A DNA stretch of 10,556 nucleotides, taken from IMG/VR virus record IMGVR_UViG_2529292905_000030, one strand, 5' to 3'. Position numbers and translations under genes: made by a program. Below, one piece after another: positions 9,417 through 9,653 of this stretch. Source of the stretch: a virus. Taxonomy: Duplodnaviria > Heunggongvirae > Uroviricota > Caudoviricetes. The first letter of the stretch is position 1. Every line of letters starts with the position of its first letter. Under the pieces are notes generated by a model. The model had not been told where the DNA came from. It saw nothing but the letters and a program-made list of their open reading frames with translations, and ran no database searches.

Positions 9417-9427
9417 TTACAAACAGA

Positions 9428-9457
9428 AAGCCCCTCAGTTGAGGGGCTTTATTTATG
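9428..9457 (+). terminator. Rho-independent terminator of ogr (end of prophage late region)
   Basis: GC-rich hairpin GCCCCTCA-GT-TGAGGGGC followed by TTTATTTAT, 12 nt after the ogr stop. Confidence 0.75.
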
Positions 9458-9512
9458 GTCGATGTGGACGCTATGTGGACAGAGTTTGATATAAATCCAT
9501 TCATATCATCAG

Positions 9513-9572
9513 GTTAGGTGCTTTTTTGTGACACCATCCCTGTCTTCCCCCACATGATGTGGGGGTTTTTTT
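9513..9572 (+). ncRNA. cpxQ: Possible 3' portion of the cpxP 3'-UTR-derived sRNA CpxQ (boundaries approximate)
   Basis: Inference from position (immediately upstream of fieF, ending at a strong intrinsic terminator) and from the known derivation of CpxQ from the cpxP 3' UTR. I cannot verify the sequence from memory. Confidence 0.25.
9547..9572 (+). terminator. Rho-independent terminator of the upstream host transcript (probably the cpxP 3' UTR terminator)
   Basis: Hairpin CCCCCACA-TGA-TGTGGGGG followed by TTTTTTT. Lies between the prophage end and fieF, whose upstream neighbour in E. coli K-12 is cpxP on the same strand. Confidence 0.7.
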
Positions 9573-9600
9573 ATCCTCAATTTGCCTGCTGCTTAATGCA

Positions 9601-9627
9601 TTGCAGATGATTTGCTTCCGTTATACT
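9601..9627 (+). promoter_or_regulatory. Candidate fieF promoter: -10 TATACT (9622-9627) with weak -35 TTGCAG (9601-9606, 15-bp spacer)
   Basis: Hexamers upstream of the fieF RBS GGGAG (9644-9648). Spacing is suboptimal, so this is tentative. Confidence 0.3.
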
Positions 9628-9653
9628 AGCGTCAGTTGATAGCGGGAGTATTT

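Follow-up and report, generated by a model that had tools for sequence, protein, structure and literature searches.

A probable WΦ-type attR junction in a 10,556-nt phage DNA window, with an attachment core that coincides with the 3′ end of the small RNA CpxQ

The right-hand part of the window—that is, the whole 10,556-nt stretch of viral DNA analyzed here (IMG/VR record IMGVR_UViG_2529292905_000030)—contains a prophage–host junction that is very probably the attR site (P-O-B′) of a WΦ-type prophage of the P2 family, inserted in the 3′ end of cpxP in Escherichia coli. The second of the two intrinsic terminators at this junction is the cpxP terminator and lies inside the attachment core, which consists of the last 44 nt of the small RNA (sRNA) CpxQ plus ATC. 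The cpxP–fieF integration site is already known as the published site of WΦ and L-413C (PMC3448106; PMC3032704), and the window is a further instance of a WΦ-type att site, so a system of this kind is not new. Because the site is textbook-level for P2-family phages, the main value of the analysis lies in correct annotation, namely in fixing the exact junction at 9529/9530 and 9575/9576 and in recognizing the second terminator as part of the att core; the understanding of such att systems is unchanged by these findings.

The final phage gene before att is ogr (9198–9416, + strand), which encodes the late-gene activator and was identified by its match to Pfam Ogr_Delta (E = 1.1e-21); its length of 219 bp is the same as in WΦ, and matching records annotate the region as ogr or ogrK. 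The intrinsic terminator of ogr (9427–9457, + strand) was found to have a 10-bp stem (9427–9450), a 4-nt loop, and a T-rich tail, with a predicted fold energy of −18.2 kcal/mol (z = −4.2), and is conserved in the attP of both WΦ and fiAA91-ss. After a spacing of 90 bp follows the second intrinsic terminator, the copy of the cpxP/CpxQ terminator (9547–9572, + strand), with an 8-pair GC-rich stem (9547–9565) and a run of seven T residues (T7, 9566–9572); the 58-nt stretch of this hairpin was predicted by RNA folding to have an energy of −19.7 kcal/mol. A terminator scan detected five terminator-like sites in the region, with 1.8 expected from shuffles. Host DNA of the B′ side, the fieF upstream region, occupies 9576–9653 (+ strand) and is identical to the empty site in K-12, O157:H7, CFS3313, and UTI89. 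The gene fieF itself, for a host CDF cation-efflux transporter, runs from 9654 to the window end at 10556 (+ strand) and was assigned from the annotation under the match, which is fieF in 5425 of the 5426 complete E. coli genomes. The scan, folding, Pfam search, and alignments all agree with the preliminary description of this DNA, in which attR had been placed after the ogr terminator and followed by a second terminator on the + strand and then by fieF.

To locate the junction exactly, the window was aligned with the empty cpxP–fieF site of K-12, the attP of fiAA91-ss, the attP of WΦ, and both ends of the lysogen 98208. In the three- and five-way alignments, phage DNA ends at 9529, the shared core spans 9530–9575, and host DNA starts at 9576. 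The two boundaries are sharp, with the right side identical to the empty site and the left side being the phage P arm; prophage-free genomes match the window only from 9530, and free phage genomes match it up to 9575. A comparison of the empty site with 9500–9653, proposed earlier as a check on the insertion, gave the anticipated match from 9530 onward, but 9500–9529 turned out to be phage arm. The core (O; GACACCATCCCTGTCTTCCCCCACATGATGTGGGGGTTTTTTTATC), defined from the alignments of attB, attP, attL, and attR, can be written for all copies as GACACCATCCCTGTCTTCCCCCACATG[A/C]TGTGGGGGT(7-8)ATC. It is 47 bp long in attB and attP and 46 bp long in the window because the T run is T7 in the latter, not T8; a WΦ core of 47 nt has reportedly been published. 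As both T7 and T8 occur at attL and at attR elsewhere, no meaning was given to T7, for which a slippage variant or a sequencing error is possible.

The hairpin of the second terminator is identical to one located 46 nt past the cpxP stop codon in K-12, O157:H7, and UTI89. Its attribution to cpxP, made before any comparison, thus stood, but the accompanying exclusion of any phage gene as its owner is misleading, because the terminator sits in the core carried by all free phages of this type; every free phage of WΦ type has a copy between ogr and int, and the terminator is inside the attachment core and does not merely flank attR. Homopolymer variants were seen among other copies of the core as well, including T7 versus T8 in lysogen 98208 (L003 1322–1328) and, in strain 51008369SK1, an attL whose stem has G4 rather than G5 (L177 24489–24492). 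Both variants may reflect true slippage or errors of assembly; a genuine G4 would make the terminator stem of CpxQ weaker in 51008369SK1.

The identity of the phage was obtained from the attP of WΦ (NC_005056, 22439–22711), which matches almost base for base through the ogr terminator, the P arm, and the core; window positions 9530–9575 correspond to WΦ 22550–22596 except for T7 versus T8. Complete lysogens were found to be ordered cpxP-attL-int…ogr-attR-fieF, with the best related ones being approximately 97% identical over the window. The Int protein of lysogens at cpxP–fieF is identical to WΦ Int at 322 of 326 residues (99%), and an attL with the same core is present in the related lysogens 98208, 4/2-1, and 2013C-4538. 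Since int and attL lie outside the window, the integrase type and the CpxQ state of the source genome were deduced from these related lysogens. The 27-bp P2 core as given in the preliminary description (AAAAAATAAGCCCGTGTAAGGGAGATT) was absent from the whole window in a search allowing up to three mismatches, in keeping with that description, and a P2-type att was rejected on this basis. Two further suggestions made there were borne out, namely that the integrase specificity is not of the P2 type—the attP match and the Int of related lysogens indicate that it is WΦ-type—and that insertion occurred in the cpxP 3′ UTR, on which the empty-site, attP, and related-lysogen alignments agree.

The published record is consistent with this assignment, and cpxP–fieF recurs in it as a site of P2-like prophages. 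Table 1 of Nilsson et al. (2011) gives WΦ and L-413C a single coordinate in MG1655, and the paper states that the attP core of L-413C does not differ from that of WΦ (PMC3448106). Table 2 of the E. coli W genome paper contains the entry "cpxP-fieF: Wphi1 (P2)" (PMC3032704). Furthermore, an O157:H7 prophage is located between cpxP and fieF (PMC7609406), and primers for cpxP and fieF lie 31.7 kb apart in a lysogen of Salmonella Infantis (bioRxiv 10.64898/2026.03.17.712176).

CpxQ is an sRNA of approximately 60 nt that RNase E releases from the cpxP mRNA and that covers nearly the whole 3′ UTR of this mRNA (PMC9438474); for nhaB and cfa, the 5′ end of CpxQ serves as the seed (PMC6755755). In K-12, the distance from the stop codon of cpxP to the end of the T run is 67 nt; with CpxQ covering almost the whole 3′ UTR, the core therefore corresponds to its last 44 nt, or approximately three-quarters of it. 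Window positions 9530–9572 are identical to the last 43–44 nt of CpxQ (~58–60 nt), terminator included. The 5′ ~14 nt of CpxQ, which hold the nhaB/cfa seed and have the processing site nearby, lie outside the core and are found only in the host. A second CpxQ seed, said to have been reported by Chao and Vogel in 2016, reportedly falls inside the region of the core. The window thus contains the cpxQ terminator, as hairpin and T7, but not a full cpxQ: the bases upstream of the core are those of the phage arm (GGTGCTTTTTTGT) rather than those of the host (TTTTCCTTGCCATA), and the gene upstream is ogr rather than cpxP. Compared with the RNase E-processed, Hfq-dependent CpxQ, the attR copy has the same 3′ end, but lacks the 5′ ~14 nt with the seed, the RNase E site, and an upstream cpxP, and is for these reasons not a second cpxQ; the functional copy is at attL, beyond the window.

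An Rfam 15 scan of 9300–9750 gave no CpxQ family match, which may mean that there is no Rfam model for CpxQ. The best sub-threshold match was Hrs1 on the opposite strand (29.4 bits, versus a gathering score of 56.4), and the ten sub-threshold matches (Hrs1, isrJ, Phe_leader, and others) were taken as chance, being far under the gathering scores and apparently tracking generic terminator hairpins. In the literature covered, no paper was found tying CpxQ to prophage integration or to the WΦ core, although publication elsewhere is possible; the identity of the WΦ core with the CpxQ 3′ end adds modestly, at the level of annotation, to what is known of this system.

Which DNA forms the CpxQ 3′ end in lysogens can be read from a single polymorphic base in the hairpin loop (core position 28; window 9557). 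This base is A in WΦ, in fiAA91-ss, and in every attP-type viral contig; it is also A in O157:H7, UTI89, CFS3313, and all 115 species-representative loci, and C in K-12 (L001 1228). A reading of C as the host state and A as the phage state was rejected, since A is common in hosts and the C of K-12 is an exceptional minority allele. In lysogen 4/2-1, the loop base is A at attL and C at attR, and strain 51008369SK1 shows the same arrangement. An attR with loop C was found at 100% identity in at least 25 genomes, and an attL with loop C in none of the 5426 complete E. coli genomes, the best match being 99.2% identical with one mismatch. With A at attL and C at attR, the stretch of attL from the crossover to the terminator is therefore phage-derived, with strand exchange 5′ of core position 28. 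The loop alleles of these related lysogens thus show what the preliminary description had supposed, namely that the CpxQ 3′ end is rebuilt with phage DNA at attL. The natural C/A polymorphism would accordingly map strand exchange to within the first 27 bp of the core—a placement that turns on one allelic difference, in C-type lysogens that may be a single clonal lineage, and on a loop base that, if located inside the heteroduplex overlap, could give the same pattern of A at attL and C at attR.

It had also been suggested that CpxQ function could be altered in lysogens. This is unlikely, because the phage core carries the common host allele—it is the commonest E. coli attB allele—and the loop A and loop C forms have the same predicted fold energy (−17.4 kcal/mol each). 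The functional effect of the phage-derived CpxQ 3′ end is, on these folding predictions, probably nil.

The P arm contains two Int arm-type sites, the direct repeats TGTGGACG (9463–9470) and TGTGGACA (9474–9481), both on the + strand, 11 bp apart, and beside ogr, which fit the P2-type arm consensus tgTGGaCa (PMC3448106). Among distinct, diverged phage left arms drawn from phage records, viral contigs, and genomes, the TGTGGAC repeats were found to keep the positions −67 and −56 relative to the core in 24 of 24, and a matching repeat pair is present in the P′ arm beside int, both in WΦ and at attL. Between these repeats and the core lies a candidate site for IHF, TATCATCAGGTTA (9504–9516, + strand; pattern WATCA-N5-TTR). 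On its own, the pattern is weak and not significant, with four matches in the window versus 1.2 expected. The motif was observed at −26 from the core in all 24 arms, with substitutions confined to the N positions; this fixed position and N-only variation support a function for it, and IHF may bind at TATCATCAGGTTA.

The interval between ogr and the P arm differs among prophages at this site. An extra 642-bp ORF (WP_000416606.1, hypothetical protein) is present there in some of them, namely in 4/2-1 (L176 42632–43273) and 51008369SK1 (L177 41901–44056), and one such prophage has IS150 there as well; the window has neither the ORF nor IS150. The ogr–att interval of related prophages therefore seems to take cargo.

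In the mechanism proposed for this junction, a tyrosine integrase would have inserted the prophage at the 3′ terminus of the cpxP transcription unit in E. coli. The 47-bp core of the phage attP would serve as the region of identity with the host, where the same bases encode the last 44 nt of the ~58–60-nt CpxQ, including its terminator. Int, occupying two arm-type sites in each arm and probably assisted by IHF, would recombine attP with attB inside this core, with strand exchange taking place somewhere in its first 27 bp. The resulting attL would have the order cpxP, host 5′ 14 nt of CpxQ, core, P′ arm, and int, such that a full CpxQ is restored with a 3′ portion made of phage DNA. For the prophage in the window, the unseen end is predicted to read from the cpxP stop codon through 23 nt, the core, ATCAAT…, and TGTGGACACTATGTGGACA to a WΦ-type int on the opposite strand. 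At attR, the order would be ogr, ogr terminator, P arm, core, and fieF promoter region, and the core copy there probably acts only as a second terminator, shielding fieF from phage late transcription.

A candidate crossover region, GACA / CCATCCC / TGTC, can be read at 9530–9544 (unstranded) as a 4-bp inverted repeat with a 7-bp spacer (9534–9540); the same bases form a small hairpin that RNA folding predicts in CpxQ. The left boundary of identity is the same across diverged phage lineages and, outside Escherichia, identity ends exactly at the T run, which is the RNA 3′ end. A crossover near the left edge of the core would fit this constant left boundary, the stop of identity at the T run, and a block spanning from the candidate crossover to the RNA end. 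Strand exchange at that edge, in the manner of tRNA integrases, has about even odds.

Among known systems, WΦ (Peduovirus Wphi, NC_005056), L-413C, and fiAA91-ss are like the window in P arm, core, and cpxP–fieF locus. The window differs from WΦ in having T7 instead of T8, in a few substitutions around the ogr terminator, and in an apparently invertible tail-fibre segment where WΦ has orf44. P2 att shares the ogr-attP-int order, arm repeats of the P2 type (tgTGGaCa), and the use of a tyrosine integrase, but differs in core sequence and host locus, with the core here being longer and identical to the host. The P2 core is 27 bp long, and its sites include locI/locH, next to cyaR/ryeE. P2-family sites at the sRNA genes cyaR and rybB are on record (Table 2 of PMC3032704; also PMC3603311), and phage targeting of the sRNA genes ryeB, ryeE/cyaR, and rybB has already been published (PMC3603311; PMC3032704). 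P2-type integrases have been placed mostly between genes, with WΦ not tied to an RNA gene (PMC3448106). Phages whose integrases use tRNA or tmRNA genes, such as 186 (in tRNA-Ile) and Fels-2 and SopEΦ (in ssrA), likewise carry the 3′ part of a conserved, structured RNA gene, which is restored on integration; in those systems, the identity block extends from the crossover to the RNA 3′ end (PMC3448106), whereas the target here is an mRNA 3′-UTR-derived sRNA with its terminator.

The same site is widely used. With a threshold of at least 80% of the 321-nt query, the junction was detected in 625 of 5426 complete E. coli genomes, and 110-nt attR and attL queries were found in 785 and 529 of them, respectively. 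The cpxP–fieF site is thus occupied in about 10–14% of complete E. coli genomes, and in these, DNA of phage origin makes up the 3′ three-quarters of CpxQ. The exact core 43-mer was found in 115 stretches of species-representative genomes from Klebsiella, Citrobacter, Enterobacter, Salmonella arizonae, Kosakonia, Yokenella, a Serratia sp., Mixta, Kalamiella, and others. In 109 of the 115 it follows cpxP, even at CpxP protein identities of 48–56%, and a WΦ-like int (67–99% identity) is present 100–130 bp past the core in 8 of the 115. Among viral contigs, the attL, attR, and attP forms all occur, two or more arm lineages are represented, and some flanks come from hosts other than E. coli. The WΦ-type core coincides with the most conserved part of the cpxP locus, which offers the integrase a place to land throughout Enterobacterales.

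Directly behind the T run (window 9573–9575), three bases read ATC in the attB of Escherichia and in phage genomes, and GCC or GTC in most other genera (L061–L175); outside Escherichia, the shared block is therefore 44 bp long and stops exactly where the sRNA does. At several loci (L066, L071, L082, L092, L099, L106, L147, L158, L159, L162, L168, and L174), fieF lies 0.7–3 kb from the core instead of ~80–90 bp, and at some of these loci the right flank is of phage type (ATCAA…) or a fragment of int is present; such displacement and flanks suggest that this site holds prophage remnants or small islands.

It is possible, although unlikely, that the core is kept mainly as a transcription element, with recombination being secondary: at attR and attP it would provide a backup terminator behind ogr and, at attL, would keep the strongly Cpx-induced cpxP transcript from entering int in antisense. 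In favor of this, the hairpin with T7–8 is predicted to be a strong terminator on the + strand only, it is located 90 bp past the ogr terminator in every free phage of WΦ type, and cpxP and int are convergent at attL. The block of identity nevertheless has the shape of an att core, with sharp bounds in attB, attP, attL, and attR, arm sites on both sides, and, in genera other than Escherichia, a right limit at the 3′ terminus of the sRNA. One role is compatible with the other, so that termination is an addition to integration at the CpxQ 3′ end more than a competitor of it.

Another reading, in which the junction is a fossil—a defective prophage whose attR remnant no longer recombines—appears doubtful. 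The window covers just 9.5 kb of phage, related prophages at cpxP–fieF often have IS elements and truncated genes, and short remnants occur at the same site in several species. Against this, all tail genes of the window and ogr are intact ORFs with full-length Pfam matches, and the core is intact, as are the sites of the P arm. Moreover, a fossil state would concern the condition of the prophage, not the identity of the junction as a WΦ-type attR.

Finally, the phage copy of CpxQ (44 of ~58 nt) could in principle be expressed at attP or attR when transcription runs on from ogr, on whose strand it lies, and act as a CpxQ mimic or Hfq competitor in lytic growth: it keeps the terminator hairpin and U-tail, a kind of 3′ end able to bind Hfq (PMC5222698), and CpxQ is reported to be prominent in Hfq chimeras with phage lambda RNAs in infection (bioRxiv 10.1101/2024.10.31.621285). 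If true, the product would be a seedless, Hfq-binding, CpxQ-like RNA that might compete with CpxQ or imitate it in part, and thereby adjust the envelope-stress response of the Cpx system to the benefit of the phage. This is highly improbable, however, as the fragment has neither the 5′ seed for nhaB and cfa nor the RNase E site, the strong ogr terminator stands upstream of it, a scan of the interval between the two terminators found no promoter-like site, and integration with gene restoration accounts for the layout in full.

Elsewhere in the window, positions 190–2754 appear to form an invertible tail-fibre (host-range) segment. Two 27-nt inverted repeats (215–241 and 2079–2105; 81% complementary) flank approximately 1.84 kb that contain tail-fibre assembly genes on both strands (732–1337, + strand; 1309–1728, − strand) and an alternative fibre C-terminus (1732–2133, − strand; Gp53-like_C), and a serine invertase gene (2161–2754; Resolvase and HTH_7) adjoins the segment.
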